This document shows positions 2,416-47,547 of a stretch of DNA of 64,000 bases, one piece after another. The stretch is from sequence record OP745616, one strand, 5' to 3'. The DNA comes from Escherichia phage E20. The notes under the pieces are model-generated. The model was given only the letters and a program-made list of their open reading frames with translations. It made no database searches and had not been told where the DNA came from. Each line of letters opens with the position of its first letter. The stretch's first letter is position 1. Position numbers and translations under genes: made by a program.

Positions 2416-2453
2416 AGGAGTCCTCCAATAGGAGGCTCCTATTTTTTATTTTT
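2416..2453 (+). terminator. Rho-independent terminator
   Basis: AGGAGTCCTCC-AATA-GGAGGCTCCT stem-loop then ATTTTTTATTTTT. Confidence 0.7.
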
Positions 2454-2490
2454 GAATAGTTAGTTATGTATTTAAATAGGAGAAAGAGCC

Positions 2491-2805: not shown

Positions 2806-3025
2806 TGATGTAATAGTAGGTAATGAAATATTCGTTAACCGAAAAGGTTATGCACGAATTAAGCTAAAGAGTACTAACAGAACTATTGTTCGTAAGGTGT
2901 ACTCTAAACCTTTTAGTAATTTCTCTATTGATGAGGTGCGTATTAATAACAAAATGTACCTCATAGATAGTAAAGTATCTGTATGCCATACAGACGGTAA
3001 AACCTCACTTGAATATGCTTATTAA
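2792..3025 (+). CDS. Hypothetical protein (77 aa)
   Basis: ORF overlapping previous stop. Confidence 0.4.
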   Translation: MNNLSDVIVGNEIFVNRKGYARIKLKSTNRTIVRKVYSKPFSNFSIDEVRINNKMYLIDSKVSVCHTDGKTSLEYAY

Positions 3026-3037
3026 GGAATAAACAAA

Positions 3038-3259
3038 ATGTTGTTCAGCACTAATTATGGTATTTGCCCGATTTGCAATAAAGGAAGAGGAGTTGCTAAT
3101 CATAAGAAGTGTAGTCGTATCCTACAGAAACAACGGAACCAGGAAGAATGGGATAAGTTGTTAAATAATCAGCATAAAGAAGAGAACCAACAGATGGCTG
3201 TTAAGGCATCTACTCAACGTATTCGCCGTATTAACTATATACAGGGGTATCAGAAATGA
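3038..3259 (+). CDS. Hypothetical small protein with CxxC zinc-ribbon-like motif (73 aa)
   Basis: CPICNKG...HKKC pattern. Confidence 0.45.
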   Translation: MLFSTNYGICPICNKGRGVANHKKCSRILQKQRNQEEWDKLLNNQHKEENQQMAVKASTQRIRRINYIQGYQK

Positions 3260-5094: not shown

Positions 5095-5913
5095 ATGTAC
5101 TCATCAATAGAACATCAGAAGCAGCTTGAAGTCCTATTCAATAAAAATCAATTACTGCCTCGCATGAGGAAGGAATTCGAGGACTCCAAAGAAATTGACT
5201 TTAAGGCATTCGCTGCCTATTTAGAAATTGATTATAAGCTGCTCATTGATGCAATGGTGCAGATTGCCCTACATAAACGTGCTGACATCCAGACTATGAT
5301 TGGCTCTCTCATGAGTCACTCAGATGATGCTCAGTACATCGCTGACTGTCTATATAAGATGGCAGAGAATGACTGCTTCAACTATGACCCTACCATCGAC
5401 AAATTCGGTGTTATCTATGAGATTAGTGAAGATGTTCAGATGGAACTGGAAGCATTCCAGTATCCATTACCTATCGTAAGTGCTCCTAAGCCTGTTCTGT
5501 GTAACCGTGATACAGGTTACTACGAAAGCAGAGGCAGCATCATCCTCAAGAAGAATCATCATGAAATGGACGTCTGCCTTGACCACATCAACCGTATGAA
5601 CAATCAACGTCTCTGTATTAACTGGGACGTTGCCAACTATGTAAAAGACTCTCGTCCTAACATGGATAAACCCAAAGAGGGGGAAACCCGTCAGGACTAT
5701 GAGAAACGTGTTAAAGCCTTTGAGAAGTACAGTCGTACTGCTAAGGAAGTAATGGAGTTAGTAACTCAAGAAGGCAATAACTTCTCACTAGCACATAAGT
5801 ACGATAAGAGGGGCAGAACCTATGCCTGTGGATACCATATCAATTTTCAAGGGACTTCATATAACAAGGCAGTGATTGAATTTGCTGATAAGGAGCTGGT
5901 AAACGATGATTAA
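5095..5913 (+). CDS. RNAPII N-terminal (small) subunit of a split T7-like RNA polymerase (N4 gp15-like), 272 aa
   Basis: Size and position immediately upstream of the catalytic subunit; N4 RNAPII is a heterodimer of roughly 270 and 400 aa. Confidence 0.65.
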   Translation: MYSSIEHQKQLEVLFNKNQLLPRMRKEFEDSKEIDFKAFAAYLEIDYKLLIDAMVQIALHKRADIQTMIGSLMSHSDDAQYIADCLYKMAENDCFNYDPTIDKFGVIYEISEDVQMELEAFQYPLPIVSAPKPVLCNRDTGYYESRGSIILKKNHHEMDVCLDHINRMNNQRLCINWDVANYVKDSRPNMDKPKEGETRQDYEKRVKAFEKYSRTAKEVMELVTQEGNNFSLAHKYDKRGRTYACGYHINFQGTSYNKAVIEFADKELVNDD

Positions 5914-6054
5914 TAAACGTGCAGTAGAAGACTTCTATGCTCATAGAGAGTTGGTACTGAAACGCATCAATGAAGCAATGAAACGTGAGGCTGAAGCTAA
6001 AGCTAAGCATAACCGTAAATAAATCCAAATGCGAGCCAAGAGGACTAATCTCAA

Positions 6055-6297
6055 ATGAGTAAGCTATTAAAACTGTGGTTAATTAGCCAAAGTGAAAACC
6101 GTGGGCATGACTCCTTTGATTCTGCTGTTGTAGCAGCCTACACAGAGGAAGAAGCTAAACAAATTAATCCAGACGGAGAATGGAAACTATACACCGCCTG
6201 GTGTTCTTCACCAGATAAAGTACATGTTGAGTACCTGGGTATTGCCACCGAAGGCGTGGAACCAGGAATAGTATTGTCATCATTTAATGCTGGTTAA
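6055..6297 (+). CDS. Hypothetical protein (80 aa)
   Basis: ORF between the two RNAPII genes. Confidence 0.45.
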   Translation: MSKLLKLWLISQSENRGHDSFDSAVVAAYTEEEAKQINPDGEWKLYTAWCSSPDKVHVEYLGIATEGVEPGIVLSSFNAG

Positions 6298-6351
6298 TCA
6301 TCCAATAAGCAGGCTCTCCATAGTGGGGAGCCAAGAAGCGAGGAATATACA

Positions 6352-7569
6352 ATGCAACTGTTAACTGCCCGTGAATACCTGAAAGTAGATGTCGCTAACA
6401 ACTATGGCTTAGATAAAAAGACATGGGATGAACGTATTAGCTGGTTCGATGAGAACGAAGCTAATCTGCTCAATCTGGTAGATGAAGCTGAAGAATCTGC
6501 ACTGTTCTATGCTGGTGTAAACGCATGGAAAGATATGAAAGCTGGTAAGCCTATTGGTTATGCCGTAGCTCTGGATGCTACATCATCTGGCTTACAGTTA
6601 CTGGCTTGCCTGACTGGTGACCGTTCTGCTGCTGAACTGTGTAACGTAGTTAACTACATGGGCAAGAATGGTAAGCCATTACGTCGTGATGCTTATACAG
6701 TTATCTATCATAAGATGCTGGACATCCTTGGTGAAGCATCTCGTATTAAACGTAGTGACACCAAGCAGGCAGTTATGACTGCATTCTATGGTTCAGAAGC
6801 TAAACCTAAAGAAGTATTCGGTGAAGGTATCCGTCTCAAGACTTTTGAGAATGTAATGGAAACTGTTGCTAGTGGACCTTGGGCATTGAACAAGTTCTTA
6901 CTGCAATGTGGTAACCCAGACGCTAACCGTTATGTATGGGTATTGCCTGACAACTTCCATGCTGTCATTAAAGTTATGGTTCCTGAAGTACAGACTGTTA
7001 ACTTCTTAGGTAAGCCATTCGACATCACTCGTATGGTCCAAGGTACTGAAGAGAAGACCCGTATGCTCTCTGCTAACATCACCCACTCTATTGATGGGAT
7101 GGTAGTACGTGAGATGCTGCGTCGTTGTAACTTCAACATGAACCAGGTGAACTATATTAAGTCCCTCTGTGAGGGAACCAGTGAATACATGGTTGGCTCT
7201 GATGATAACTATGAAATGGTTAACACACTGTGGTCTAACTATGAGAAGTCGGGATTCCTGTCTACCCGTATCTTTGATTATCTGGACTCTGAAACAATTG
7301 CATTGGTTGATACAGATGTAATCATGGCTATGCTCAATACCATGCCTAAGAAACCATTCCCTGTAATGACCGTACACGACTGCTTCCGTTGTCATCCTAA
7401 CTACGGTAATGACCTGCGTCGTCAGTACAATCAGATTCTGTCTGACATTGCTAAGAGTGACCTACTGGGCTTCATCCTGTCTCAGGTACTGGGACAAGAG
7501 TTCTCTGCTGGTAAGCTGGATGACAGCCTTTGGCAGGACATCCTTGAAACAGATTATGCATTAAGTTAA
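6352..7569 (+). CDS. RNAPII catalytic subunit, T7-like single-subunit RNAP palm/fingers (N4 gp16-like), 405 aa
   Basis: T7 RNAP motif A-like DATSSGLQ, motif B-like RSDTKQAVMTAFYGS, motif C-like TVHDCF. Confidence 0.85.
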   Translation: MQLLTAREYLKVDVANNYGLDKKTWDERISWFDENEANLLNLVDEAEESALFYAGVNAWKDMKAGKPIGYAVALDATSSGLQLLACLTGDRSAAELCNVVNYMGKNGKPLRRDAYTVIYHKMLDILGEASRIKRSDTKQAVMTAFYGSEAKPKEVFGEGIRLKTFENVMETVASGPWALNKFLLQCGNPDANRYVWVLPDNFHAVIKVMVPEVQTVNFLGKPFDITRMVQGTEEKTRMLSANITHSIDGMVVREMLRRCNFNMNQVNYIKSLCEGTSEYMVGSDDNYEMVNTLWSNYEKSGFLSTRIFDYLDSETIALVDTDVIMAMLNTMPKKPFPVMTVHDCFRCHPNYGNDLRRQYNQILSDIAKSDLLGFILSQVLGQEFSAGKLDDSLWQDILETDYALS

Positions 7570-7575
7570 TAAACT

Positions 7576-7611
7576 GGCCTCATACCTTCGGGTATGGGGC
7601 TTTTATTTTTT
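7576..7611 (+). terminator. Rho-independent terminator
   Basis: GCCTCATACC-TTCG-GGTATGGGGC then TTTTATTTTTT. Confidence 0.7.
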
Positions 7612-7613
7612 GC

Positions 7614-7811
7614 TTGGAGGTAGTCAACATGCCAGACATCTATGATGTTATTACTAAAACCGTACTGATAGTTTTATCTGCTATTGTGATACTCACTATA
7701 GTTAACGCCCACAAATCCAAGTTTGCTTATTGCTACTATGGAGCATACTCTGCCGGATGTTTTGTATTAGCCGGTTGGATAGCTTACTGGATTTACCACA
7801 TCAACAACTAG
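7614..7811 (+). CDS. Small membrane protein (65 aa)
   Basis: Hydrophobic segments; bracketed by two terminators. Confidence 0.45.
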   Translation: MEVVNMPDIYDVITKTVLIVLSAIVILTIVNAHKSKFAYCYYGAYSAGCFVLAGWIAYWIYHINN

Positions 7812-7840
7812 CCACCCTCAAGGGTGGCTTTCTTTTTTAT
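7811..7840 (+). terminator. Rho-independent terminator
   Basis: GCCACCCT-CAA-GGGTGGC then TTTCTTTTTT. Confidence 0.7.
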
Positions 7841-7885
7841 CAGCCTTCATAATGATTAGGCATATTTACTCAAGAGGATACATAC

Positions 7886-8719
7886 ATGCCAACCCTAAAG
7901 ATTGCGTTTAATAAAACTACCAACGTTGCTACCGTGCTTGATTCAGGTGGCAGTGTTCCAGGTGGTTCCGTGGAAGTAGGTACTTTTGAACATCCAGATG
8001 CCACTTACCCTGATAGCTTAGTTATCTATCACGGTGTTCGTGACCTGTTGTATAAACGTTCTGCTAAAAACCCTGCTGAAGAAGGCTTCTGGCCTGACAA
8101 CATCGTGGATATGCAATCGGTCACTATCGACATGCAAGCTACTCCACGACTGACTGTTGCTACCAAACTGCCTCGTGTAGTCTCTGCCATCGAAGGAGTA
8201 GATGTTAACTGGCATATTGATGTAGCAGGTGGTAAAGCACCATTTACTTATAAGTGGCAATTCAAAGCTGATACTGCTGGTGCAGTATTCACTGATATTG
8301 ATTCTGGTGATAACGCATCTGCTATCACTGCAACATTGACCCTTAGTAACGTAACAGCTGCTTCTGCCGGTACTTATAAAGTGATTGTTACTGATGCTAA
8401 TGGAACCACGGTAGAAGATACCTCGTTGCTGGCTGTAGGTTACTACGAAGCAAGTTCACTGGTAGCTACTCCTACTTCACTGGCTCTGTCTGTTGCTGAA
8501 GATCTCGCCGCTGGCAAGACTGTAACCATTGCTGCTATGCCTGTTGGTTCATCTGCTGGTACTTTGTCTATCAAGACTGCTCCAGATTCTGCCCGTGCTA
8601 CAGCTACCATTGCTGGTAACGTACTGACAGTTAAACCTGTGGCTGCTGGTGATGCTACTTCTGTTGTAGTTACCAACGGTACTGTCGATGTAACCATCGC
8701 TGTTACTGTTGCAGAGTAA
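7886..8719 (+). CDS. Ig-like (BIG2-type) domain protein, putative capsid decoration protein (N4 gp17-like), 277 aa
   Basis: Two Ig-like stretches (TYKWQF...SAGTYKVIVTDANGTT; TVKPVAAGDATSVVVTNGTVDVTI); syntenic with N4 gp17, directly after RNAPII. Confidence 0.55.
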   Translation: MPTLKIAFNKTTNVATVLDSGGSVPGGSVEVGTFEHPDATYPDSLVIYHGVRDLLYKRSAKNPAEEGFWPDNIVDMQSVTIDMQATPRLTVATKLPRVVSAIEGVDVNWHIDVAGGKAPFTYKWQFKADTAGAVFTDIDSGDNASAITATLTLSNVTAASAGTYKVIVTDANGTTVEDTSLLAVGYYEASSLVATPTSLALSVAEDLAAGKTVTIAAMPVGSSAGTLSIKTAPDSARATATIAGNVLTVKPVAAGDATSVVVTNGTVDVTIAVTVAE

Positions 8720-8770
8720 GGGTATCCCTTATTTGGGGTTATAAACCCCGAAAGGAAACCCTCAAGTTTG

Positions 8771-8800
8771 GCCTCCCTATTGAAGGGAGGTCTTTTTTTG
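8771..8800 (+). terminator. Rho-independent terminator
   Basis: CCTCCCT-ATTGAA-GGGAGG then TCTTTTTTTG; a weaker hairpin also at 8735-8750. Confidence 0.7.
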
Positions 8801-8856
8801 ACTATTGTTTGTCTGTTATATGAATATGTATCAATCTACTAACTAAGAAGGTAACT

Positions 8857-9117
8857 ATGCGTAAAATTGCTATTGGATTCGGTTGTAGTGCTGTTACGGG
8901 CCTTATCGCTTATGCTGCCCACGTAATCTTGGGTATGTCACTGATTGACCTGACACCGGTCATGGTAGCTGCTATCGCAGCCCCACTATTTGGTATCGTA
9001 GTCTTTGACTTTAAAGCATTCAGCCGTGCTGCTGCTGAAGTAAGCAATCTAATCCTGGGCCGACTTGGACATCGTTCCTTTGGTTCTGGTAGTCTATGCC
9101 GACCTCATGGTCTGTAA
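8857..9117 (+). CDS. Membrane protein (86 aa)
   Basis: Two hydrophobic helices. Confidence 0.45.
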   Translation: MRKIAIGFGCSAVTGLIAYAAHVILGMSLIDLTPVMVAAIAAPLFGIVVFDFKAFSRAAAEVSNLILGRLGHRSFGSGSLCRPHGL

Positions 9118-9134
9118 AGTATAAACTGATAGAT

Positions 9135-9162
9135 AAACCCCAGCATTGACTGGGGTTTTTTG
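9135..9162 (+). terminator. Rho-independent terminator
   Basis: AACCCCAG-CATTGA-CTGGGGTT then TTTTT. Confidence 0.6.
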
Positions 9163-9178
9163 CATCTGGAGCCAGGAA

Positions 9179-9367
9179 ATGTATAAAGAGATTGCATTCT
9201 TCTCGTTCTTGTTAGGAGGGTTAATTGGTGCAGGAATTGTAGCTATTTCTAATACCTACTTTGGTTCTACTCCAAACTCTGTAACACAAACCCACAAGCA
9301 TGAATGTGAATTGAATATCCCTCGTAATCAAAACTGCGTAATGCAGTTCGTACCGGAGAAGAAATGA
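9179..9367 (+). CDS. Small membrane protein (62 aa; ORF track start 9146 lies inside the terminator)
   Basis: ATG at 9179 with GGAG RBS; TM helix FFSFLLGGLIGAGIVAI. Confidence 0.4.
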   Translation: MYKEIAFFSFLLGGLIGAGIVAISNTYFGSTPNSVTQTHKHECELNIPRNQNCVMQFVPEKK

Positions 9368-9549
9368 AACTTACCCAGTCCCAAGTAATATTCCTTCGCA
9401 TGGTTCAAGGTGGTTCTGCCACCAGCAACCGTAATAACAAAACCGCACAGTCTCTTAAGAAGCTGGGCTTAGTACAGTTCAATACTGGTCTTGGGTGGTC
9501 ATTAACCCCTACCGGAGTAATTCAACTCAACGAATTAAAAGGTAACTAA
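9364..9549 (+). CDS. Hypothetical protein (61 aa)
   Basis: ORF. Confidence 0.35.
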   Translation: MKLTQSQVIFLRMVQGGSATSNRNNKTAQSLKKLGLVQFNTGLGWSLTPTGVIQLNELKGN

Positions 9550-9876
9550 ATGAAAACTTTAATTGCTGTTGCTGTAGTAGCTTTATCAGTTCTGTCATTC
9601 GGTGCTCAAGCATCTAGTCGTGCAACCTTGCTGGAAGCTGCTGCTGATTACAAAGCTAATAATACAAACTTTGTGAACCAGGGTTACTTCATGGGCATGG
9701 TTACCATGGGGGTGGAAGCAGGAAAGAACTGTGTACCTGACGATATGAAGTTAGGGCACATTTTTGACAGAGTGGCTTCTATTATTCTGTATGACCGAAA
9801 GGTTAATGCAATGAAAGTACCTTCAGACATGGTTCTGTTAGCGATTGATACAGCGTATCCCTGCGTTAAATCTTAA
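9550..9876 (+). CDS. Secreted/periplasmic protein with cleavable signal peptide (108 aa)
   Basis: N-terminal MKTLIAVAVVALSVLSFGAQA|SS signal-peptidase I pattern. Confidence 0.5.
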   Translation: MKTLIAVAVVALSVLSFGAQASSRATLLEAAADYKANNTNFVNQGYFMGMVTMGVEAGKNCVPDDMKLGHIFDRVASIILYDRKVNAMKVPSDMVLLAIDTAYPCVKS

Positions 9877-9910
9877 TTAGTAATTCCATTAACTTTAGGA
9901 GAGTAAGTAA

Positions 9911-10963
9911 ATGGCGAGCATTGACTCCTTGACTGTATGTAATACACGCCAAGCCCGTAACTTTATTATCCGTGCCTTACAAGCAGGTAACGTACCGTTC
10001 CTGACTTCATCGCCGGGCATGGGTAAATCTGCAATTATCCGTTCTGTTGCAGAAGAATTTGGCATGAAGCTGATTGACCATCGTCTATCTACTTCTGCCC
10101 CGGAAGACTTATCTGGTCTACCATTCCGTAATGGTGACCGTGCAGAGTTTATCCCTTTCGCTGACTTATTCCCTATTGAGGGGGATGAAGTACCGGAAGG
10201 TTATAATGGCTGGCTCCTGTTCCTTGATGAGTTCAACTCAGCTAAGAAAGAAGTAGTAGCTGCTGCATACAAACTGATTCTAGACCGTATGACTGGACAG
10301 AAGAAACTACATCCTAATGTGATGATTATCTGTGCCGGTAACAAAGCTACTGACCGTGCTATCGTTAACCCACTGGGTACTGCAATGCAGTCCCGTGTTG
10401 TCCACTTCGAAATGGAACTTAACTTCGACATTTTTGTTGAAGACGTAATGATTCCGCAAGAATGGGATGAGCGTCTGGTTGCATTCTTACATGCTAATCC
10501 AGGCTATCTGCATGACTTCGACCCTGCCCATAAGAACAAAACATTCTGTTGTCCTCGTACCTGGGACTTTGTTAACAAAGACCTCAAGAACCGACCAGAA
10601 GGTGCTCTGCCTGATGAAGATTCTATCTACTATGCAGGCCACGTTACTGCCGGTAAAGCTACAGAATTTGTTCAGTTCACCCAGGTATATAATCGTATGA
10701 TTACGATTGAGAAGGTAGTCAAAGACCCATTGGGCTGTGCACTGCCTGAAGATAATAACCTGTGTTGGGCTACTGTTAACCATCTGGCTAACAAGACTAC
10801 TGAAGATAACTTCGTTGATGTACTTAAGTACATTGAACGATTCAAAACGTTCACCCATAAGATTCTGTACTTCCGTACAGCGGGTAAAGCATTACCAGAA
10901 ATTCAGGCTACTCCTGAATGGCGTAAAGCTGCTGCCAACATCTCTCGTTACATTCACGGATAA
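9911..10963 (+). CDS. MoxR-like AAA+ ATPase (N4 gp24-like), 350 aa
   Basis: Walker A SPGMGKS, Walker B LLFLDEFN, sensor region. Confidence 0.75.
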   Translation: MASIDSLTVCNTRQARNFIIRALQAGNVPFLTSSPGMGKSAIIRSVAEEFGMKLIDHRLSTSAPEDLSGLPFRNGDRAEFIPFADLFPIEGDEVPEGYNGWLLFLDEFNSAKKEVVAAAYKLILDRMTGQKKLHPNVMIICAGNKATDRAIVNPLGTAMQSRVVHFEMELNFDIFVEDVMIPQEWDERLVAFLHANPGYLHDFDPAHKNKTFCCPRTWDFVNKDLKNRPEGALPDEDSIYYAGHVTAGKATEFVQFTQVYNRMITIEKVVKDPLGCALPEDNNLCWATVNHLANKTTEDNFVDVLKYIERFKTFTHKILYFRTAGKALPEIQATPEWRKAAANISRYIHG

Positions 10964-10970
10964 TCACAAC

Positions 10971-12146
10971 ATGAACCAGATACCTCAGCACACACTTAGT
11001 GATGAACAACTCATGCGCGAGTATGACCGTATTCAGGCCCAAGCTTTCCTAGGCAAGTCTGCTGCGTTTTTTGGTTCATTGCTGTGTAGTCTTAAGTTCT
11101 CATGGAATCGTGAGGATTGCCCCACTGCATGTACTGACGGAATAGAACTCCATTTCAACCCAGACTTCTTTGTCTGGATGTGCCCTGATGCAAGAGAAAC
11201 AGTGCTAATGCACGAACTCTGGCATGTGGCATATCTACATGGCATCCGTTGTGGAAGCCGTGACCCGGAAGTCTGGAACCAGGCATGTGACCACTTCATT
11301 AACCTTCAGTTAGAAGAAGACGGTTACAAGTTCACTGGTATCGACAAAGGCATTTGCAAAGACCCTCAATATAAAGGATGGGTTGAAGAAGACATCTACG
11401 ATGACCTGATGAAGAACCCTCAGAAAAGGCAGAAGCCGTCAGGGGGTGCTGGAGCAGGTCTTGCTGGCGACATGAAAGCTCCCTCTTCGGGGCAGTCCCA
11501 GGGTGCTGTTGTCAACAACGTAGTACGTGCAATGCAAAGCCAGAAGATGGCTGGTGGAATAATGCCCGGTAAAGGTGCTGGTCGTATGGAAGAGGTTATT
11601 ACCCAATTCCTTAAACCAGTAGTTCCATGGCAGGAAGTCCTGCTGAACTTCTTTACCGACATTGATGACACACACTATACGTGGGCCAGACCTAACCGTC
11701 GTTTTACTGACATCTATCTACCATCACTGGAAGATGATGAAGGTCGTTTACGACACCTAGCTTACTTTGAGGATGTATCTGGTTCTATTAGTAATTCTGA
11801 CTCTCTGCGTTTTAACTCAGAGGTTGCCTACGTTAAGAGCCAGTTCAATCCTAAGAAGATGACCCTTATTACCTTCGACGATATTATCCAAGAAGAAATA
11901 GACATCACTGAAGAAGATACTTTTGAAGAGATTAAGATTACTGGTCGTGGTGGTACAAACCTTGAACCAGTGCGTGAATGGATTATTAAGAATAAGCCAA
12001 CCGCTGCAATCATATTCTCCGATATGTATGTTCGTCCTATGGAAGAATTACCATTTGATATCCCTATCATCTGGTGTGTTCTGAATAATCCCAATGCTAC
12101 CGTACCTTTTGGGGAGGTAGTTCATATCCCTAAAGGAATGAAATAA
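10971..12146 (+). CDS. vWA domain protein with N-terminal HExxH metal-binding module (N4 gp25-like), 391 aa
   Basis: HELWH motif; MIDAS DxSGS (FEDVSGSIS); ATG at 10971 directly after the ATPase stop (ORF track 10737 is an in-frame extension overlapping the ATPase gene). Confidence 0.6.
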   Translation: MNQIPQHTLSDEQLMREYDRIQAQAFLGKSAAFFGSLLCSLKFSWNREDCPTACTDGIELHFNPDFFVWMCPDARETVLMHELWHVAYLHGIRCGSRDPEVWNQACDHFINLQLEEDGYKFTGIDKGICKDPQYKGWVEEDIYDDLMKNPQKRQKPSGGAGAGLAGDMKAPSSGQSQGAVVNNVVRAMQSQKMAGGIMPGKGAGRMEEVITQFLKPVVPWQEVLLNFFTDIDDTHYTWARPNRRFTDIYLPSLEDDEGRLRHLAYFEDVSGSISNSDSLRFNSEVAYVKSQFNPKKMTLITFDDIIQEEIDITEEDTFEEIKITGRGGTNLEPVREWIIKNKPTAAIIFSDMYVRPMEELPFDIPIIWCVLNNPNATVPFGEVVHIPKGMK

Positions 12147-12652
12147 TGGTTGTTAATGGTAATTCTCTATACCGTTCATCTCAATTGCTGGACATCCCAG
12201 ACCATAAAGTATCCAAGCATGGTGTAAGTTATGGATTAGGTGAAGCCGGTTATGATATTCGTATCAAACAAGATATCACTTTCTATCGCTTATTCGGGTT
12301 GATTCCAATGGTGAAGACTGTCGATGCTGGGGTTGTTAAACGCCACTTCGGTAAATTCGCATTGGCTTCAGCAATTGAGAAGTTCAACATGTCCCCATCC
12401 TGTGTAGCTATCGTTCACGATAAGTCTACATGGGCAAGACGTGCATTATCAGTGTTCAATACTGTAATAGAACCAGGATGGAAAGGGTATCTTACTCTCG
12501 AACTGGTCTATCATGGTCGTAAGAAACTGCATATCCCGGCTGGTGCTGGGATAGCTCAAGTATTATTTCATCTGGTTCAAGAGCCTGCTAATTACAATGG
12601 CAAGTATCAGAACCAGGAAGACAAACCAGTATCTGCTAGACCTTCAAAATAA
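12146..12652 (+). CDS. dCTP deaminase/dUTPase-fold protein, 168 aa
   Basis: GYDIR ... EPGWKG pattern characteristic of the dCTP deaminase family. Confidence 0.6.
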   Translation: MVVNGNSLYRSSQLLDIPDHKVSKHGVSYGLGEAGYDIRIKQDITFYRLFGLIPMVKTVDAGVVKRHFGKFALASAIEKFNMSPSCVAIVHDKSTWARRALSVFNTVIEPGWKGYLTLELVYHGRKKLHIPAGAGIAQVLFHLVQEPANYNGKYQNQEDKPVSARPSK

Positions 12653-12682
12653 AAGGCTATCCAGATTAATCAAGGAAATAAC

Positions 12683-12868
12683 ATGTCTGTATTTCAAGTA
12701 ACTCCTGCTGACAGTACCCAACGTAAAACTATTGTTGCAACTAACGTAGTAGATGTAGATGAAACTCCGGCTGGTGCTGTAATTCATCTCATTGATGGGC
12801 GAACTGTAACTGTAAAAGAAAGCTACCGTTCGGTACGCGGTTACATTCGTAAAGCTTTAGCTGAGTAA
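12683..12868 (+). CDS. Hypothetical protein (61 aa)
   Basis: ORF. Confidence 0.4.
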   Translation: MSVFQVTPADSTQRKTIVATNVVDVDETPAGAVIHLIDGRTVTVKESYRSVRGYIRKALAE

Positions 12869-12880
12869 GTAGCTGCCTAA

Positions 12881-12907
12881 ATAGCCCAGCATAGTTGGGC
12901 TATTTGT
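12881..12907 (+). terminator. Possible terminator hairpin
   Basis: TAGCCCA-GCATAGT-TGGGCTA then TTTG; short T-run. Confidence 0.4.
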
Positions 12908-13202
12908 GAAGAAACTAACTCAACCCCACATAGGAACTATCATGGAATCTTTAGCAGCAATCCTTATTCTGTTATTTGCACTAGCTGTATACCTTATCCC
13001 TACTATTATTGCTTTTGCACGAGGCCATGCCTCTAAGTGGGGAATTGGTGTACTCAATATTGTATTAGGCTGGTCTTTGGTCTTCTGGGTAGTAGCACTG
13101 ATTTGGTCACTGTCTAATAAAGGACAGTCTCAGACTACAATCGTTAACGTTGGTAGTGGGAACCAATACAACGTGTCTCAAACGAGCCAGTCTGATAAGT
13201 AA
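12906..13202 (+). CDS. Superinfection immunity (Imm-like) membrane protein, 98 aa
   Basis: YLIPTIIAFARGHASKWGIGVLNIVLGWSLVFWVVALIWSL closely matches the Imm/superinfection-immunity family signature; two TM helices. Confidence 0.7.
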   Translation: MKKLTQPHIGTIMESLAAILILLFALAVYLIPTIIAFARGHASKWGIGVLNIVLGWSLVFWVVALIWSLSNKGQSQTTIVNVGSGNQYNVSQTSQSDK

Positions 13203-13276
13203 CTAACCTAAGCATCATTGCATAGTGGTGCTTGTGGAAGTTACTTTCAGCTCATTGCTTATCCATCTCCTAATCC

Positions 13277-13305
13277 AAGCCCACCTAACCCGTGGGCTTT
13301 TTTAA
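13277..13305 (+). terminator. Rho-independent terminator
   Basis: AAGCCCAC-CTAACC-CGTGGGCTT then TTTTT. Confidence 0.65.
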
Positions 13306-13319
13306 TTACAGGTACTCTT

Positions 13320-13703
13320 ATGTCAAACAGACAAAATGGTAAGTCTATCTTATATGGACTGGACTTAAGTAAACTGGAACAAACTGCAATGCTTACTTTA
13401 GGTAAAACTATACATGACCAAGTAGAGAATGAAATAGAATCAGATGTTTATGCAGCAATGCAAGCTGCTATTCTGAAAGGATGGACTAGTAGATCATTTA
13501 ATGTTTTCCCATACATCCCTCCTGAACCTCATCTGAAATCTAAGGTAGACCGTATCATAGATAAGTTCTGGCTTAGTCCTTGCTATGACGAAATGCATCT
13601 TTACCTGGCTCAAATACAAAAGAATCCACGTACTAAGGATTTGTTCAAAGGCAAGAGCACTACCCATCATTACCCTTGGTATAGAAGAGGTAGTAAATAC
13701 TAA
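13320..13703 (+). CDS. Hypothetical protein (127 aa; ORF track start 13218 spans the terminator)
   Basis: In-frame ATG at 13320 downstream of terminator. Confidence 0.45.
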   Translation: MSNRQNGKSILYGLDLSKLEQTAMLTLGKTIHDQVENEIESDVYAAMQAAILKGWTSRSFNVFPYIPPEPHLKSKVDRIIDKFWLSPCYDEMHLYLAQIQKNPRTKDLFKGKSTTHHYPWYRRGSKY

Positions 13704-14146
13704 TGCGTATCCCATTCCTAAGAAAAAGGGAACGAAATCCTGTTCTTTATAATAAAGGCATAGAGGATGAGTACGAACTTAACCGTAAGGCCCGTTCCTA
13801 CGCAGCAAAATTATTAATGGGGGCTACCAACCCTGATAGATTACTGGACTTTGTTTTCGAACAAGTCTTTATCATATACAGCTTAGCTATGTCTGCTGGT
13901 TCACAAGAAGTAAGTGATAAGGCAAGAGATGCTCTCTGTATGCTCCGTAAAGAGTATGAAGCCCTCATGTATGAAGACTTGTACTCCTTTAAAAAAGAAA
14001 CCGCTGTAGCGTGTTCTGTGGCTCTTACTGAAGGTATAGCAGTATTACAGGAACTACCACGTAGTGAGTTTAAACTGGTATATGTTCAGGCCAAGAGGAT
14101 TACAGAAAGCCGTAGTGGTATTACCAACTATCTAAGGTCATTCTAA
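13703..14146 (+). CDS. Hypothetical protein (147 aa)
   Basis: ORF with ATGA-type overlap to neighbours. Confidence 0.5.
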   Translation: MRIPFLRKRERNPVLYNKGIEDEYELNRKARSYAAKLLMGATNPDRLLDFVFEQVFIIYSLAMSAGSQEVSDKARDALCMLRKEYEALMYEDLYSFKKETAVACSVALTEGIAVLQELPRSEFKLVYVQAKRITESRSGITNYLRSF

Positions 14147-15090
14147 TGATTAAGGCAACTGTCATTGCAGATTCCGTTCATCATGCAACGGGTACTCGTA
14201 TTACTACCTTTGAATTGGTCTATCCCCGATTCATTCACAGTGAGTTTATGACCCACCGTGTATTCAACCGAAATGCTTCAAGTAGTCGTGCTATCCCTAC
14301 TTCTAAGTTCATCGAACAAGTTCGTAATGAACCAGTGATGCCAAGTCACTGGGGCAAGAACCAGAAGGGTATGCAGGCATTTGAGGAACTGTCCGAAGAC
14401 CAACGTAGTGATGCAATCTTTATCTGGAACCAGGCTGCGTCAAGTGCTGCTACCTATGCGGAAATGCTTCGTCGTGGACAAGTTCATAAGCAGATTGTTA
14501 ACCGTATTCTGGAACCATTCACACATATCCGTGTAGTGGTAACTTCAACTAGCTGGGCTAATTTCTATGGCTTACGTGACCATGAAGATGCCCAACCAGA
14601 GATTCGTGAATTAGCTCAAGCAATGCGTAAGGCTCATAATGAAAGCACTCCAAGAGCACTCCCACAAGGGGAATGGCATTTACCGTATATTGCTCATATT
14701 GATCGTGTCGGGGCTTATAATTACTGCAAACATCAGCGAATTACTCGTGATGAACCAAGTAGTGAAGAAGTGTATGGCTTACTTCTTAAGGTAAGTGCTG
14801 CTCGTTGTGCTCGTGCTTCTTACAACAATTTTGAAGGCCGTCCTTCTACTATTGAAGAAGACTTAGGATTGTTTGCTAAGTTAGTAGAGAACCAACCTAT
14901 TCATGCATCCCCTACAGAACACCAGGCAACTCCTATGCTGTTCGGTGATAAGTTCATTAACAACCAGAACCCATTAACCTGGGAACAGGGTGTTACTTCA
15001 ATGGATCGTGAAGGTAATCTGTATTCAGGTAACCTGTTAGATTTCATCCAATTCCGTAAACTAATCCCCGGAGAAACAATTACAGAATGA
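14146..15090 (+). CDS. thyX: FAD-dependent thymidylate synthase ThyX-like, 314 aa
   Basis: ThyX-like HR-x7-S motif (THRVFNRNASSSR) and AQPEIRELA motif. Confidence 0.6.
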   Translation: MIKATVIADSVHHATGTRITTFELVYPRFIHSEFMTHRVFNRNASSSRAIPTSKFIEQVRNEPVMPSHWGKNQKGMQAFEELSEDQRSDAIFIWNQAASSAATYAEMLRRGQVHKQIVNRILEPFTHIRVVVTSTSWANFYGLRDHEDAQPEIRELAQAMRKAHNESTPRALPQGEWHLPYIAHIDRVGAYNYCKHQRITRDEPSSEEVYGLLLKVSAARCARASYNNFEGRPSTIEEDLGLFAKLVENQPIHASPTEHQATPMLFGDKFINNQNPLTWEQGVTSMDREGNLYSGNLLDFIQFRKLIPGETITE

Positions 15091-15323
15091 AACGTTTAGC
15101 TATCCAAGCCCTGTTTATAAGTATCATCCTGGTTCTGGAATTTGTATTTGCACTGCATGGTGCACAGAGCCTAGAAGAGATGTTCTTCGTAGTAGCCCGT
15201 TTTTCTGCATGTGTTCTTAGCTTATGGTGTGTGTATTACTATGCACGCGATTATGTAGCCATCAAGGAACAGGATGATGCTAAGGAACGTCTATTACAAT
15301 TCGTAGAACAGAATCGTAAGTAA
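15087..15323 (+). CDS. Small membrane protein (78 aa)
   Basis: Hydrophobic helices. Confidence 0.45.
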   Translation: MKRLAIQALFISIILVLEFVFALHGAQSLEEMFFVVARFSACVLSLWCVYYYARDYVAIKEQDDAKERLLQFVEQNRK

Positions 15324-15326
15324 ACC

Positions 15327-15357
15327 TAAGACCTCCTCCGGGAGGTCTTTTTTTGGT
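15327..15357 (+). terminator. Rho-independent terminator
   Basis: AAGACCTCC-TCCG-GGAGGTCTT then TTTTTT. Confidence 0.7.
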
Positions 15358-15383
15358 TTCAATTAACTCTTTTAGGGGGGCAT

Positions 15384-15596
15384 ATGCCTGCTAAATACCG
15401 TATCAAAGACACTCCACTAATGTGTGAGGGTGAGAAGGGTGACATTGTATATGCCTGTATCCAGGATGATTTCAATGCTGCTCTGATGTTAACCCAAATG
15501 ACAAATACACTGCATGTATCAGTAACACTGGACCCTACCGGTGACTATCCATGCTTCCCTATCCCTGCCCATAACCTGGAGCAAATCCATGATTAA
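15384..15596 (+). CDS. Hypothetical protein (70 aa)
   Basis: ORF. Confidence 0.4.
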   Translation: MPAKYRIKDTPLMCEGEKGDIVYACIQDDFNAALMLTQMTNTLHVSVTLDPTGDYPCFPIPAHNLEQIHD

Positions 15597-15903
15597 TCCT
15601 GAAGTTATTCATAGTAAAACTGGTAAGGCTATTCCACTTAGTGATATTGCAGTTACCGGTGATATTGCTGCTTGTCCGGCTAACATCGCTTCCCTGTGTA
15701 TGTGCATTGCTGCACTAGCAGAGGAACGTAAATTATGGCTGGAACCAAGCAAAGAAATGGTACTAGCTGGCATGTCTGAACTGAATGCACTTCTGAAAGA
15801 AATGTATGACGAGGATGGTCAATTAGTTGAGCCAACTGATGACCAGATTTCTGATGCTGTAGTATTTATCCTTCAAGCAATGGCAGGTAAACGTAATGGC
15901 TAA
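15589..15903 (+). CDS. Hypothetical protein (104 aa from ATG 15589; ORF track GTG start 15541)
   Basis: ATG overlapping previous stop. Confidence 0.4.
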   Translation: MINPEVIHSKTGKAIPLSDIAVTGDIAACPANIASLCMCIAALAEERKLWLEPSKEMVLAGMSELNALLKEMYDEDGQLVEPTDDQISDAVVFILQAMAGKRNG

Positions 15904-16087
15904 TGTAAATATCGCCTCAGAGAAAACATATAGCATTCAAATTAATGGCTTAACAGAATATCAGGTCTTATTCCTAATGAATGCTTTTCAAAACAGTCCA
16001 GTGGGTCACCATCCTAATGATGAACCACGGGAAGAAGCTGAGCTTCGTAAAGCTATTTTTGATAAGTGTAAACAAGTACTACTTTAA
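15896..16087 (+). CDS. Hypothetical protein (63 aa)
   Basis: ORF. Confidence 0.4.
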   Translation: MANVNIASEKTYSIQINGLTEYQVLFLMNAFQNSPVGHHPNDEPREEAELRKAIFDKCKQVLL

Positions 16088-16114
16088 GCAACATTTAAAC
16101 TGGAGAGTAAATAA

Positions 16115-18682
16115 ATGTTAGTTGCAGATACTAATCAATCAGCCACTTCAGCGACACTGGGTGGCAAAGAAGCAATCGCCTTTGGCATCTCTGATGACCC
16201 GGCATTCTTTCACGTATTAAGTACTTCCTTGTATAACAACCCTACTCTGGCAGTAGTCCGTGAGACTATCTGTAACAGTTGGGATGCCCACATTGAAACA
16301 GGTAAGACTGATACACCTATCCGTATTACCATTGATACTGACAACTTTATTACCTTCCGTGACTTTGGTAACGGAATCCCGGATGAACTCATTGGTTCCA
16401 TTTACGGTGTCTATGGTGCATCCACTAAGAAGTCCAACAGCAGTGTTACTGGTGGCTTTGGTCTGGGATGTAAATCCCCATTCGCTTATACAGATAGCTT
16501 CCAGGTTACTTCATGGAACCAAGGAAAGATGTCTGTGTATAACGTAGCTAAGGCTGCAATTGAGAATGATGGTAAACCAGGTATTGTTCCTATTGTTACT
16601 GGTATTCCTACTGAGGAATCTGGTCTGGAAGTTAAATTCCAGTTAGGTAAGCACGACGTAAATACCTTTGTGCATTACATCACATCAATTGTGTTTAACG
16701 GTGAAATTAAGGCCGAGCTTAGTCTTCCCAAATTAATTCGTGAAGAAACAGGTAATAGTATTCAACAAGGTGACTACACGCTACTGAATACATTAGGTAT
16801 GTCATTTGAACCTGGTTCGTATGATATGTCTGATAGCTGGTATCAAAGCTATATGGGTAGCAGTAACATCTTTGTTCGTTACGGTAACGTAATGTACCCA
16901 ATAGTATCCAGCCCAGCTAGTGAAGAAGCTGTAGGTCTTATTCTCAACTTCATGAATATTATTGGTGCTGACACTTTAGTAGTTCAGGCTGCACCAGATA
17001 CCTTAGCTATTGCCCCTAGTCGTGAAACCCTGTCTAACCAGAAGCTAACTGACGATGGTATTACTGCTCTATGTGTAGATTTAGTAGACCGTATGGAGAA
17101 AGAGATTAAGGCTAAGATTCCTGAAGCTATTAAGCAGATTGAAGAATACGCCTCTGAATCTTCTACTCAATATTGGGAATACCCATCTTTCCTGGGTGCT
17201 GTTACAGATAGAACTGTTCAACGCTATATGTCCTCCAGTTTGTGGGCTAAGCAACGTAAGCATCATATTAAGCACTGGCGTAATCTATCCAATAAGGCAT
17301 TACTAGCTCGCCCTGAGTATGCAGGTCTTAAAAAACTGTATAGTAAAGCTATGAGTGCTCTTAAGGATACTCGTGCAGATGGTACAAGATACCCATTCCA
17401 GGAATTAGTATACCGGCATCTGCACTTACCTCAGCTTGCTGCTTTAAAAGCCACTGGTATTAAGTGGTCTGGTTACATAATGAACCAAGGTTATAGTGTT
17501 GACCTGGTGAAAGGTAAACTTACTGACTACTTTAAGATAGGTTATAACTCCCATCTAGGTATTGGTATTTTCACTACTAAGAACGTTGTAGTTACTCGAC
17601 GTTTATCCGACTGTGCAGTCTCTTTCGCATACTTCCCTGAATACAGTAAAGGTGACCTGGAGCGTACAGCTTTTGTTCACGTTGTTAGTCCTAAGAAGGG
17701 AGAAGCAGAAAAAGCTGTAGCTAAGTTCACTGCTATGGGTTATCGGGTTATTAACCTTACTCAATATAATGAGTGGGACAAGCCAACTAACCTCCGCAGA
17801 GAACAAGCTAAGATAGCTGCTGAGAAACGTGCTAAGACGATAGCTGCCAATAAAACCAAAGCAGGAGGTAAAACTAATGCACTGGTTTCATTGAATGCAG
17901 TACTTGGTACTAACCCTGTACGAGATAAAAGTGGCGATTGGGTATCTAAGCCGTACATTGACGGGGGATTTGCTGACCCAGCACGCCATGAGAAATACGG
18001 TTTTGTTGAGGTAGAACAGCCTAAGTACTACGTACTAGCCAATCAGGTTGGTTCTGGTAGTCCTGTAACTGCTCGAATTGGAACCATGTGGAAATGGTAC
18101 GAGTTATCTGATGAGATGAAAGCAGAGACTGTTGTCTGTCGCAATCAAATCGAGGCTAACAAGGCCAAACGACGTGGTGCTATACACATTGATGATGTTC
18201 GTTTTAACGAACTGATGTCAGTTATTACCAGTAAAGTTTTCAAGAAATATGTTACTGAACACCGTATTGGTATTCTGGAATATGTAGGACTTGATGACAG
18301 AGAATATTGGGAAATCCTTGATATTCTGGGGCTAACCTTCAAACCATTACAGAATCTGATTTTTAAACCAGAGTATGAATGGGCATATGACTTTCTAAGG
18401 AATCGACCACATGGCTACAAAGAAAAACTTGTTGAAATGGGTTGTATTAAGTCAGTGGATGACTTAGAGCCATATACAATGATGGTTAATCCACGTAATC
18501 ATAAGTACTTTGAAATGCTTAATCAATACAAAGGATTATTCCGTTATAGCTGGGGTGCTGGTGACATACTACAGAGTCTGGACTTAGGTAGTTTAGTTAA
18601 ACATCTCAAGAGAAATCCAGAGGATATTCCTGGGTTTAAGTCCCTCTACCGTAATCGTCTAAATAAACTGAAAGGTAAATAA
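16115..18682 (+). CDS. rIIA: rIIA-like protein with N-terminal GHKL-type ATPase domain, 855 aa
   Basis: GHKL N-box ETICNSWDA, G1 box DFGNG, G2 box GGFGLG; size and position as in N4-like phages. Confidence 0.6.
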   Translation: MLVADTNQSATSATLGGKEAIAFGISDDPAFFHVLSTSLYNNPTLAVVRETICNSWDAHIETGKTDTPIRITIDTDNFITFRDFGNGIPDELIGSIYGVYGASTKKSNSSVTGGFGLGCKSPFAYTDSFQVTSWNQGKMSVYNVAKAAIENDGKPGIVPIVTGIPTEESGLEVKFQLGKHDVNTFVHYITSIVFNGEIKAELSLPKLIREETGNSIQQGDYTLLNTLGMSFEPGSYDMSDSWYQSYMGSSNIFVRYGNVMYPIVSSPASEEAVGLILNFMNIIGADTLVVQAAPDTLAIAPSRETLSNQKLTDDGITALCVDLVDRMEKEIKAKIPEAIKQIEEYASESSTQYWEYPSFLGAVTDRTVQRYMSSSLWAKQRKHHIKHWRNLSNKALLARPEYAGLKKLYSKAMSALKDTRADGTRYPFQELVYRHLHLPQLAALKATGIKWSGYIMNQGYSVDLVKGKLTDYFKIGYNSHLGIGIFTTKNVVVTRRLSDCAVSFAYFPEYSKGDLERTAFVHVVSPKKGEAEKAVAKFTAMGYRVINLTQYNEWDKPTNLRREQAKIAAEKRAKTIAANKTKAGGKTNALVSLNAVLGTNPVRDKSGDWVSKPYIDGGFADPARHEKYGFVEVEQPKYYVLANQVGSGSPVTARIGTMWKWYELSDEMKAETVVCRNQIEANKAKRRGAIHIDDVRFNELMSVITSKVFKKYVTEHRIGILEYVGLDDREYWEILDILGLTFKPLQNLIFKPEYEWAYDFLRNRPHGYKEKLVEMGCIKSVDDLEPYTMMVNPRNHKYFEMLNQYKGLFRYSWGAGDILQSLDLGSLVKHLKRNPEDIPGFKSLYRNRLNKLKGK

Positions 18683-47496: not shown

Positions 47497-47547
47497 ACTT
47501 ATATCGTATATAGGTAACTTACTCTACAGTAAGCCAGTGTAAGAAAA

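Follow-up and report, generated by a model that had tools for sequence, protein, structure and literature searches.

A midasin-like AAA+ ATPase and its zincin-like vWA partner in the N4-type coliphage E20: a putative remodelling and cleavage pair

What is the function of a gene pair that ranks among the most conserved non-structural genes of the N4-like phages? The question is raised here by a 64,000-nt stretch of Escherichia phage E20 DNA (sequence record OP745616; hereafter the window), whose source phage is a Gamaleyavirus, a G7C/PhAPEC7-like N4-type coliphage, and which is 95% identical at the DNA level to PhAPEC7. The pair itself is no discovery. In PhAPEC7 the first gene is annotated as “ATPase, similar to N4 gp24” and the second as “VWA-like domain-containing protein, similar to N4 gp25”, RefSeq carries the labels “ATPase” and “VWA-like domain-containing protein”, and both genes are listed in papers on N4-like genomes (PMC2784036, PMC6992544, PMC6950046). 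The initial annotation had called their role in N4-like phages poorly defined, and our literature search agreed, yielding the annotation-level mentions of these three papers only. No functional study of N4 gp24 or gp25 was found in this search: the CRISPRi-ART paper deals with gp25 of phage PTXU04 only, and the DEV paper uses “essential” and “knockout” but makes no mention of ATPase or vWA. For DUF2201, the Pfam family matched by the second protein, only unrelated, non-functional mentions were retrieved, and the search turned up no assay of a DUF2201 protein.

As had been claimed, the two genes lie side by side in the same orientation. The first (+ strand, 9911..10963) encodes a 350-aa orthologue of N4 gp24, as indicated by its open reading frame, the PhAPEC7 annotation, Pfam, PHROG, an AF2 model and profile comparisons. 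The second (+ strand, 10971..12146) encodes a 391-aa orthologue of N4 gp25, as indicated by its open reading frame, start codon, Pfam and the PhAPEC7 CDS annotation, which places the start at the same ATG, 7 nt past the ATPase stop. A GTG at 10737, a mechanical limit of the open reading frame only, was rejected as the start because it lies 227 nt within the ATPase gene and conflicts with the annotated orthologue. A dCTP deaminase gene follows (+ strand, 12146..12652), and its ATG and the stop codon at the end of the peptidase–vWA gene overlap (ATAATG), suggesting that these two genes are probably co-transcribed and translationally coupled. The transcription unit of the pair is flanked by terminator-like hairpins on the + strand, one closing the preceding unit behind the Hoc-like gp17 gene (8770..8792) and the other ending the unit itself (13277..13299); PhAPEC7 has annotated terminators at both equivalent places. 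A scan for sigma-70-like promoters returned 9 matches against 16.7 expected from shuffled controls, so that we assign the unit no host-type promoter, and this shortage is consistent with transcription by a phage RNA polymerase. Rfam revealed no RNA families between positions 8000 and 14000. The pair belongs, here as in every N4-like genome, to an early/middle + strand block, assigned as such from genome position, together with the genes for dCTP deaminase, ThyX and rIIA/B, and the late structural genes are distant and on the opposite strand.

Alignment of 24 homologues revealed that the catalytic apparatus expected of an AAA+ ATPase is retained in the gp24-like protein. The Walker A motif or P-loop (SSPGMGKS, aa 33–40, 10007..10030) begins with a serine, so that the strict G/AxxxxGK[ST] pattern fails, and P35, G38, K39 and S40 are invariant; in the Walker B motif (LLFLDE, aa 102–107, 10214..10231), D106 and E107 are invariant. 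Between them lies a helix-2 insert region (aa 56–99, 10076..10207), predicted from the AF2 model and conservation to form a beta-hairpin, with strands 72–74 and 77–79 placed between beta2 and the Walker B strand. This region is the best-conserved stretch of the ATPase (DHRLSTSAPEDLSGLP...), with D56, R58, T61, P64, D66, G69 and P71 invariant, and in NorQ it is the helix-2 insert that binds the vWA partner (PMC13036017). The model and conservation also point to a pre-sensor-1 hairpin (aa 126–136), modelled at about residues 127–134 before the strand 137–144, and to sensor 1 (AGN, N144), the two together spanning 10286..10342. R162 (in QSRV, 10388..10399) is a candidate arginine finger, judging from its conservation and its post-sensor-1 position. 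All these features are on the + strand, and K39/S40, D106/E107, N144 and R162 are invariant both in the 24 phage sequences and in a set of 28 phage and bacterial sequences. In several relatives the ATPase gene has been invaded by homing endonucleases; one of these insertions falls precisely within the Walker B codons and splits the gene between L105 and D106.

As to its class, the ATPase matched the Pfam AAA family (2.3e-6, 28.5 bits against a cut-off of 21.2) and PHROG 1297 (ATPase, 6e-134). The AAA_5 profile check proposed in the initial annotation gave a divided answer, in that the phage protein stayed below the cut-off (17.7 vs 22 bits; bpMoxR, 13.7 vs 27), whereas a homologous Telmatobacter protein passed it with 27.7 bits and fell just short for AAA_3 (25.6 vs 27). 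Single-protein searches of the PDB were insufficient for both proteins, the ATPase sequence alone matching only midasin (6e-5), and profiles were needed. A profile of phage and bacterial ATPases matched NorQ at 3.2e-7 and midasin at 2e-31, where the best stretch runs from Walker A through the arginine finger; the same profile scored other AAA+ proteins at 1e-8 or weaker, over shorter stretches. The AF2 model (pLDDT 84.5) found its best Foldseek matches in dynein AAA modules, NorQ, Rea1 and CbbQ, with a TM of about 0.6 normalised to NorQ or CbbQ. Judged from conserved motifs and the predicted fold, the gp24-like protein is thus an AAA+ ATPase with intact catalytic residues, belonging to the MoxR/midasin/dynein group and predicted to carry both hairpin inserts of that group; together with the vWA gene next door, these matches uphold the MoxR-like assignment.

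The gp25-like partner matched DUF2201_N (1e-54) and DUF2201 (1.2e-34), which together span aa 17–386, as well as phrog_1314 (7e-145), so that the suggestion of DUF2201-like metallopeptidase and vWA domains was borne out by profile searches. Its N-terminal part (aa 17–150, 11019..11420) is a putative zincin metallopeptidase domain, as suggested by Pfam, conservation and weak profile matches to M48 HtpX (0.0097), minigluzincins (0.05) and BepA; fold searches listed no matches for this domain. The HELWH motif noticed initially (aa 81–85, 11211..11225) lies inside this domain, is invariant in 24 homologues of 47–86% identity and falls within a predicted helix (aa 72–87), the model having a pLDDT of about 90 over aa 11–150. 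Conservation marks out a second helix (R93..R97..W102-N-x-A-C-D107..N111, 11247..11303), and H81, H85, R93, R97, W102, A105, C106, D107, N111 and Y143 are invariant across phage and bacterial members. From its place on this next long helix, the invariant D107 is a candidate third zinc ligand. The catalytic E82 is kept in more than 90% of phage and bacterial members; one bacterial member carries HLVMH in place of HExxH, which suggests that peptidase activity may not be universal.

Model confidence and conservation delimit, beyond this domain, a Gly/Ser-rich flexible linker (aa 151–213) followed by a conserved low-confidence segment (aa 214–262), together covering 11421..11756. The segment reads LKPVVPW...W-x-RPNRR...YLPS, has a pLDDT below 50 at 214–220 and 230–256, and contains ten residues invariant in 24 homologues (L214, P216, W220, F227, W238, R243, R244, Y249, L250 and P251); it may serve as a docking or regulatory element. 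The C-terminal part is a minimal vWA-like domain (aa 263–386, 11757..12128), identified by its MIDAS residues and by a fold search that returned the vWA fold, although the gp25-like sequence alone found no match in the PDB. The MIDAS site comprises D268-x-S270-x-S272 (the DVSGS of the initial annotation, 11772..11786), T329 in GRGGT (11955..11957) and D351 in FSD (12021..12023), and all five residues are invariant in the 24 homologues; absence of Walker and MIDAS motifs on careful alignment, which had been named as grounds for abandoning the assignment, was therefore not what we observed. All the features of the partner are on the + strand. On the strength of motifs and modelling, we describe the gp25-like protein as a zincin-like domain with HExxH that a flexible linker joins to a minimal vWA domain whose MIDAS site is complete. 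An “anti-sigma factor” label on some records was rejected as annotation carry-over.

Both proteins are broadly conserved in phages. Orthologues of gp24 and gp25 keep about 50% identity across the Schitoviridae, the window proteins are about 60% identical to those of the Enquatrovirus type, and in one comparison identity to N4 was 50% for gp24 and 42% for gp25, the same range as for RNAP subunits and helicase (PMC6992544). The catalytic residues of both are invariant among phage homologues at 47–88% identity and are also found in bacterial members at 22–42%. Within a phage collection, 738 records have the partner and 827 the ATPase; the lineages are the same for both and include Rak2-like jumbo phages and rV5/PVP-SE1-like phages. 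Matches in K64-1, GAP32 and XbC2 cover more than 90% of the gp25-like protein at about 24% identity (E 1e-10 to 1e-12 for K64-1 and GAP32). In GAP32 the ATPase gene is immediately upstream of the partner gene, and the pair directly follows three genes for virion structural proteins. In rV5-like and PVP-SE1-like phages the ATPase gene is several kb away on the opposite strand, and in the rV5-like phages the match is limited to the N-terminal domain of the partner, suggesting that the parts of the pair are separable.

Relatives of the pair also occur in cellular genomes, on plasmids and in ICE-like regions. The partner family is large, with 21,604 cluster representatives (50% identity) matching at E <= 0.001. 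Analysis of 80 cellular loci revealed an ATPase homologue upstream on the same strand in 71 (about 90%), most exceptions being contigs that end upstream, and a DUF3150-like gene of about 310 aa between ATPase and partner in 57; an HMM of this middle gene found no counterpart among all ORFs of the window at E <= 10. The neighbours at these loci include genes for RNase H, Gp157, PRTRC ThiF, PRTRC E, VirB11 and VirB4, and on the conjugative plasmid bgla_4p of Burkholderia gladioli the cassette lies between PRTRC and T4SS/TraI/TraD genes. A catalogued defence system was considered for the bacterial cassette and dropped: NCBIfam returned no matches for the phage proteins and no meaningful family for the bacterial homologues, and PADLOC on both sets gave weak partial P-loop matches only (DolB, 0.0044; IetA, 3e-5 over about 35 residues).

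What, then, might the pair do? In our preferred reading, to which we give a probability of roughly 0.55, it would be a two-part, ATP-driven, MIDAS-targeted machine for remodelling and cleavage that acts on a non-virion client in the infected cell. The templates for this analogy are NorQ/NorD, CbbQ/CbbO and Rea1/midasin, with structures and biochemistry available for NorQD (PMC13036017, PMC9976466), and from motifs, models and these analogues we infer ATPase activity, zinc binding, proteolysis and a gp24–gp25 interaction. The gp24-like ATPase would assemble as a hexamer, and the vWA-like domain of gp25 would dock on its conserved helix-2-insert face. The MIDAS metal would then bind an acidic side chain of the client, ATP hydrolysis would remodel the client by pulling or twisting the adaptor, and the attached zinc peptidase would cut the client. 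Because related cassettes reside on plasmids and ICE-like regions, which have no virions, and because the phage pair has an early/middle position, the most likely client is an intracellular factor, either of the host or of replication/establishment, and not a virion protein. Several observations count against this explanation, namely the short vWA domain, the HLVMH member, the separable parts and the structural neighbours in GAP32; so does the status of core genes at about 50% identity across genera, which is unusual for host-specific counter-defence genes.

A more specific proposal, which we advance tentatively and consider unlikely, is that the pair represents the phage branch of a mobile-element machine that would seize a conserved host protein through its MIDAS site and cut it on entry. 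Such a machine would combine a MoxR/midasin-like motor with a zincin–vWA adaptor, joined on plasmids and in ICEs by a DUF3150-like protein as third subunit, and its carriers would be the otherwise unrelated Schitoviridae, Rak2-like jumbo phages, rV5-like phages, conjugative plasmids and ICEs. If true, this would be an ATP-dependent protease of a new class, serving host takeover or counter-defence.

The alternative that the pair is a chaperone and protease of virion assembly, which would help structural proteins to fold and assemble and would also process them by proteolysis, appears to us improbable, even though virion assembly has already been proposed for the same MoxR and metallopeptidase–vWA architecture in group 2.2 jumbo phages (Iyer et al., 2021; PMC7824862) and a MoxR–vWA pair has been reported in tail assembly of the archaeal virus ATV. 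The homologues in K64-1 and in GAP32, with its adjoining structural genes, speak for this role, and the strict core-gene conservation would fit a conserved assembly step such as the handling of the giant virion RNA polymerase. However, the separation of the pair from the opposite-strand late genes in all N4-like genomes argues against it, as does the frequency of catalytically intact homologous cassettes on elements that build no virions. In addition, MS of virions of the N4-like phage KP8, which gave a partial proteome, did not cover the orthologous ATPase and metallopeptidase (PMC6950046), although a chaperone would not be expected in the particle anyway.

Decidedly doubtful is the reading as a chaperone for metal-cofactor insertion or enzyme activation, in the manner of NorQ/NorD, CoxD/CoxE, CbbQ/CbbO or the chelatases, with the HExxH domain acting as a metal- or client-binding module and the activated target being a phage or host enzyme, for example of nucleotide metabolism. 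Enzyme activation is the best-characterised job of MoxR–vWA pairs (PMC13036017, PMC9976466), NorD shares the layout of N-terminal domain, linker and vWA, and nucleotide-metabolism genes recur nearby, with dCTP deaminase and ThyX here, thymidylate synthase in GAP32 and thymidylate kinase in PVP-SE1. Virulent phages, however, generally have such neighbours in their early/middle regions, the phage and plasmid contexts share no conserved candidate client enzyme, and the wide retention of the catalytic glutamate of HExxH points to hydrolysis rather than mere metal binding. Finally, we give practically no credence to the second gene as an HNH endonuclease, a database label of PHROG 1314 and many RefSeq phage records. 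Some relatives have true HNH homing endonucleases within or next to these genes, and the label was probably carried over from them. Pfam matches at E <= 0.1 include no HNH family, DUF2201_N and DUF2201 fully cover the protein, and the C-terminal fold is vWA.

Nothing new was revealed for this particular window. With relatives in several virulent phage lineages and on conjugative plasmids, and with so large a partner family, the identity of the client would explain a widespread mobile-element function; its identification would also correct the widespread “HNH endonuclease” mis-annotation.

Comparison with known systems places the pair most closely beside N4 gp24 (AAA ATPase) and gp25 (vWFA superfamily) and their Schitoviridae counterparts, to which the window genes are orthologous, with similar lengths and domains and no difference in kind; the N4 order of RNAP2 ... 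gp24, gp25, dCTP deaminase gp26 ... ThyX is common to the window. The Rak2-like (group 2.2) jumbo phages have homologous proteins in the same two-gene architecture, but there the pair lies beside structural genes instead of in an early/middle block. The ATPase/DUF3150-like/DUF2201 cassettes of plasmids and ICE-like regions are homologous as well (22–42%), with catalytic residues, order and strand alike, and differ from the phage window in their usual third gene and in their flanks of PRTRC (ThiF/ParB-related) and type IV secretion genes.

More distant are the characterised MoxR systems. Compared with NorQ/NorD and CbbQ/CbbO, the N-terminal domain of the phage partner differs in being a zincin-like HExxH domain, and there is no evident metal-insertion target. 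Relative to NorQ and CbbQ, the phage ATPase is extended at its C-terminus by a helical domain of about 110 aa (helices at aa 237–342), and the phage vWA domain (about 125 aa) is too short for, and has no recognisable equivalent of, the 45-residue “finger” with which NorD enters the ATPase pore. A complex of the NorQD type is marked by this finger and by a partner whose C-terminus binds the post-sensor-1 loop. In the eukaryotic protein midasin/Rea1, which acts in ribosome assembly, six AAA modules are fused into one chain of about 5000 aa that has no peptidase, whereas the phage system consists of two small proteins, the ATPase presumably a homo-hexamer. For the peptidase domain, M48 proteins (HtpX, BepA) and minigluzincins are candidate relatives: they share a weakly similar core, in which an edge strand is followed by an “LAHEvxH” active-site helix (E 0.0097–0.9), but the phage protein is soluble and no membrane protein, and in place of the gluzincin glutamate helix it has a family-specific second helix with an invariant W-N-x-A-C-D.

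The window represents a Gamaleyavirus (Schitoviridae), an N4-type coliphage resembling G7C and PhAPEC7; across 9500-12700 its DNA shares 95% identity with phage PhAPEC7 and >90% with about 50 other records. Two plus-strand genes stand here in tandem: ORF A, which encodes an ATPase of 350 aa (9911-10963; ORF scan and PhAPEC7 annotation), and ORF B, which encodes its 391-aa partner (10971-12146) and has its ATG, as annotated in PhAPEC7, 7 nt past the ORF A stop. The mechanical ORF limit, a GTG at 10737 that falls within ORF A, was rejected as the ORF B start. RefSeq describes the PhAPEC7 copies as "ATPase, similar to N4 gp24" and "VWA-like domain-containing protein, similar to N4 gp25". The dCTP deaminase gene (N4 gp26) comes next, its start overlapping the ORF B stop codon. 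Terminator-like hairpins at 8770-8792 (5' flank) and 13277-13299 (3' flank), both with annotated terminators at equivalent positions in PhAPEC7, enclose a unit in which the pair is preceded by four small ORFs and followed by the dCTP deaminase gene and two further small ORFs. Immediately before the ATPase gene, 9550-9876 (+) encodes a 108-aa protein with a signal-like N-terminus and a weak, sub-threshold likeness to Rap1a/Tai4 T6S immunity proteins (Pfam PF18602, E 0.0022), and several related phage records carry a 'Tai4' feature somewhere in the corresponding 3.2-kb region. The last gene of the unit, at 12906-13202 (+) and directly ahead of the 3' hairpin, encodes a small membrane protein; its positional counterpart in PhAPEC7 carries the annotation 'immunity to superinfection'.

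The product of ORF A is an intact MoxR/midasin-type AAA+ motor. Walker A (SSPGMGKS, aa 33-40) and Walker B (LLFLDE, aa 102-107) are present, as the initial annotation had claimed, and P35, G38, K39, S40, D106, E107, sensor-1 N144 and R162 are invariant in 24 homologues (50-88% identity); G38, K39, D106, N144 and R162 remain so when 21 bacterial homologues (22-31% identity) are included. Pfam assigned AAA at 2.3e-6, and the phage ATPase alone scored 17.7 bits against the AAA_5 threshold of 22 and matched only midasin (6e-5) in a PDB sequence search. Bacterial homologues matched the phage profile at 1e-40 to 1e-70, and one exceeded the AAA_5 threshold (27.7 bits). A joint phage and bacterial profile retrieved midasin (2e-31), the strongest stretch spanning Walker A through arginine finger, and NorQ, a MoxR protein (3e-7), the remaining AAA+ proteins being weaker or matched over shorter stretches. 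In the AF2 model (pLDDT 84.5) one beta-hairpin follows beta2, ahead of the Walker B strand, and a second precedes sensor 1; Foldseek matched the model best to dynein AAA modules, NorQ, Rea1 and CbbQ. Together, the AAA_5-passing homologue, profile matches, hairpins and Foldseek matches justify the label "MoxR-like" at the level of the MoxR/midasin/dynein group. The best-conserved stretch, DHRLSTSAPEDLSGLP (aa 56-71), lies within the helix-2 insert, which in NorQ contacts the vWA partner (PMC13036017); aa 237-342 form a helical extension without any Pfam match. The window gene is uninterrupted, unlike split copies in relatives: in phage U1G an 882-bp insertion with an HNH homing endonuclease (L002, the retrieved U1G locus, 2227-3108) falls exactly between Walker B codons L105 and D106 (window 10225|10226) and contains a weak match to the group I intron family (RF00028, 23.7 bits, E 0.0013). 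A comparable 'ATPase x2 + HNH' arrangement is annotated for Pseudomonas phage ZC08 and Escherichia phage Pollock.

The ORF B protein combines an intact HExxH site with an intact MIDAS site. Both motifs noted initially were recovered, the N-terminal HELWH at aa 81-85 (H81, E82 and H85 invariant in 24 homologues) and the C-terminal DVSGS at aa 268-272 (D268, S270, S272, T329 and D351 invariant in the same set), and the profile searches then suggested gave Pfam DUF2201_N, "putative metallopeptidase" (1e-54, aa 17-253), and DUF2201, "VWA-like" (1.2e-34, aa 263-386). With 18 bacterial members added, H81, H85, R93, R97, W102, A105, C106, D107, N111 and Y143 are invariant and E82 is kept in >90%; D107, in the invariant second-helix motif, is a candidate third ligand. 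The family profile of the N-terminal domain gave weak, consistent zincin matches (HtpX/M48 0.0097, minigluzincins 0.05, BepA), aligned over a strand and the "LAHExxH" helix; a PDB sequence search with ORF B alone gave no match for this domain. The zincin fold is argued from the Pfam assignment and the motif, because fold searches with the ORF B model gave no N-terminal-domain match among the matches listed. The AF2 model (pLDDT 76.6) divides into four regions: a helical N-terminal domain predicted with confidence (aa 11-150), a low-confidence Gly/Ser-rich linker, a highly conserved segment at aa 214-262 (window 11610-11756; W-x-RPNRR...YLPS) and a compact alpha/beta domain (aa 263-386). The third has AF2 confidence <50 and invariant L214, P216, W220, F227, W238, R243, R244 and Y249-L-P251; it may fold only when bound to the ATPase or client, or may be a regulatory or cleavage segment.

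Both proteins are conserved at about 50% identity throughout the Schitoviridae, including phages of Escherichia, Klebsiella, Achromobacter, Pseudomonas, Rhizobium, Vibrio and roseobacters; one comparison with N4 gave 50% for gp24 and 42% for gp25, in the range of RNAP subunits and helicase (PMC6992544). In the phage collection, gp25-like genes occur in 738 records and gp24-like genes in 827, in the same lineages: Schitoviridae, Rak2-like jumbo phages (e.g. K64-1, GAP32), PVP-SE1-like and rV5-like phages. The ATPase gene is directly upstream of its partner in Rak2-like phages (GAP32), and a "MoxR ATPase" lies a few kb from it in PVP-SE1-like and rV5-like phages. Although filed in the plasmid database, the circular 75,126-bp Acinetobacter baumannii record pRBH2-3 (NZ_CP110465.1) is in fact the genome of an N4-like phage, with an RNAP2-like polymerase, AAA ATPase and VWA-like protein in N4 order.

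The partner family is a large one, with 21,604 representatives (50% identity clusters) at E <= 0.001 and 5,264 at E <= 1e-30. A homologous ATPase gene lies upstream on the same strand in 71 of 80 cellular-genome loci, most exceptions being contigs that end upstream of the partner gene. Genetic linkage of the pair is tight in phages and plasmids alike. In 57 of the 80 loci a DUF3150-like gene (about 310 aa) is also present, usually between both genes (for example, 7033-7977, 9150-9989 and 8013-8942 in retrieved loci L047, L017 and L086); in the phage window, an HMM for this third gene matched none of the ORFs at E <= 10. Genes found repeatedly beside the cassette encode RNase H, Siphovirus Gp157, PRTRC ThiF, PRTRC protein E, VirB11-like and VirB4 proteins, ThiF/ParB-related PRTRC genes and type IV secretion genes being among them, and in the Burkholderia gladioli conjugative plasmid bgla_4p the cassette lies between PRTRC genes and VirB3/VirB4/TraI/TraD. 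NCBIfam and PADLOC gave no name for any of these bacterial proteins.

N4-like gene blocks were also observed inside two large bacterial contigs. In Mesorhizobium yinganensis (L004, 727-kb contig), 5900-17137 holds gp24, gp25, dCTP deaminase and ThyX together with a gp37-like helicase, and housekeeping genes flank the block on its left; in Xenophilus sp. (L006, 914-kb contig), 6100-16400 has an integrase-like gene directly before a gp25-like gene, then a helicase and a stretch that weakly matches (26% identity, E 7e-9) the long ORF at window 36667-47523, taken to be the virion RNA polymerase. Schitoviridae are regarded as strictly virulent; these blocks may be integrated Schitoviridae-like elements or else assembly chimeras.

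By analogy with characterized MoxR-vWA systems, the ATPase would assemble as a hexamer whose helix-2-insert face docks the vWA-like domain, the MIDAS metal would bind an acidic residue of a client, ATP would move the adaptor and remodel the client, and the tethered peptidase of gp25-like would then cut it; we put the probability of this generic mechanism at roughly 0.55. From genetic context we infer an intracellular client rather than a virion component, because plasmids and ICEs carrying the homologous cassette make no virions, because the pair of N4-like phages lies in the early/middle plus-strand block, well separated from the late structural genes, which occupy the opposite strand, and because neither orthologue has MS coverage in the partial KP8 particle proteome. 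An alternative role as chaperone and protease in virion assembly, the one put forward for jumbo phages with this architecture (PMC7824862), is rather unlikely, the three-gene cassette on conjugative elements arguing against a purely virion-assembly role. Still more doubtful is a NorQD-like role in metal insertion or enzyme activation. The label "HNH endonuclease" (phrog_1314 and many RefSeq phage records, e.g. NC_070869.1, NC_070871.1 and NC_027399.1) can be dismissed as a propagated mis-annotation, because the protein consists entirely of DUF2201_N and DUF2201, without an HNH domain. Some rV5-like records name the family 'anti-sigma factor', a label dismissed on the same grounds.

The ATPase/vWA pair proposed in the initial annotation is thus correct and already known, having been described in 2009 ("N4 gp24 AAA ATPase / gp25 vWFA, function unknown"; PMC2784036), entered in the tables of later N4-like genome papers (including PMC6992544) as "ATPase / metallopeptidase" and pointed out in 2021 as a phage architecture of MoxR ATPase and metallopeptidase-vWA partner (PMC7824862). 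Our additions are modest: a second-helix motif found to be invariant, in which D107 may be the third ligand; a connection to the three-gene cassette of conjugative elements; and the midasin/NorQ affinity of the ATPase. The templates for the remodelling-and-cleavage mechanism are NorQ/NorD, CbbQ/CbbO and Rea1 (PMC9976466, PMC13036017).
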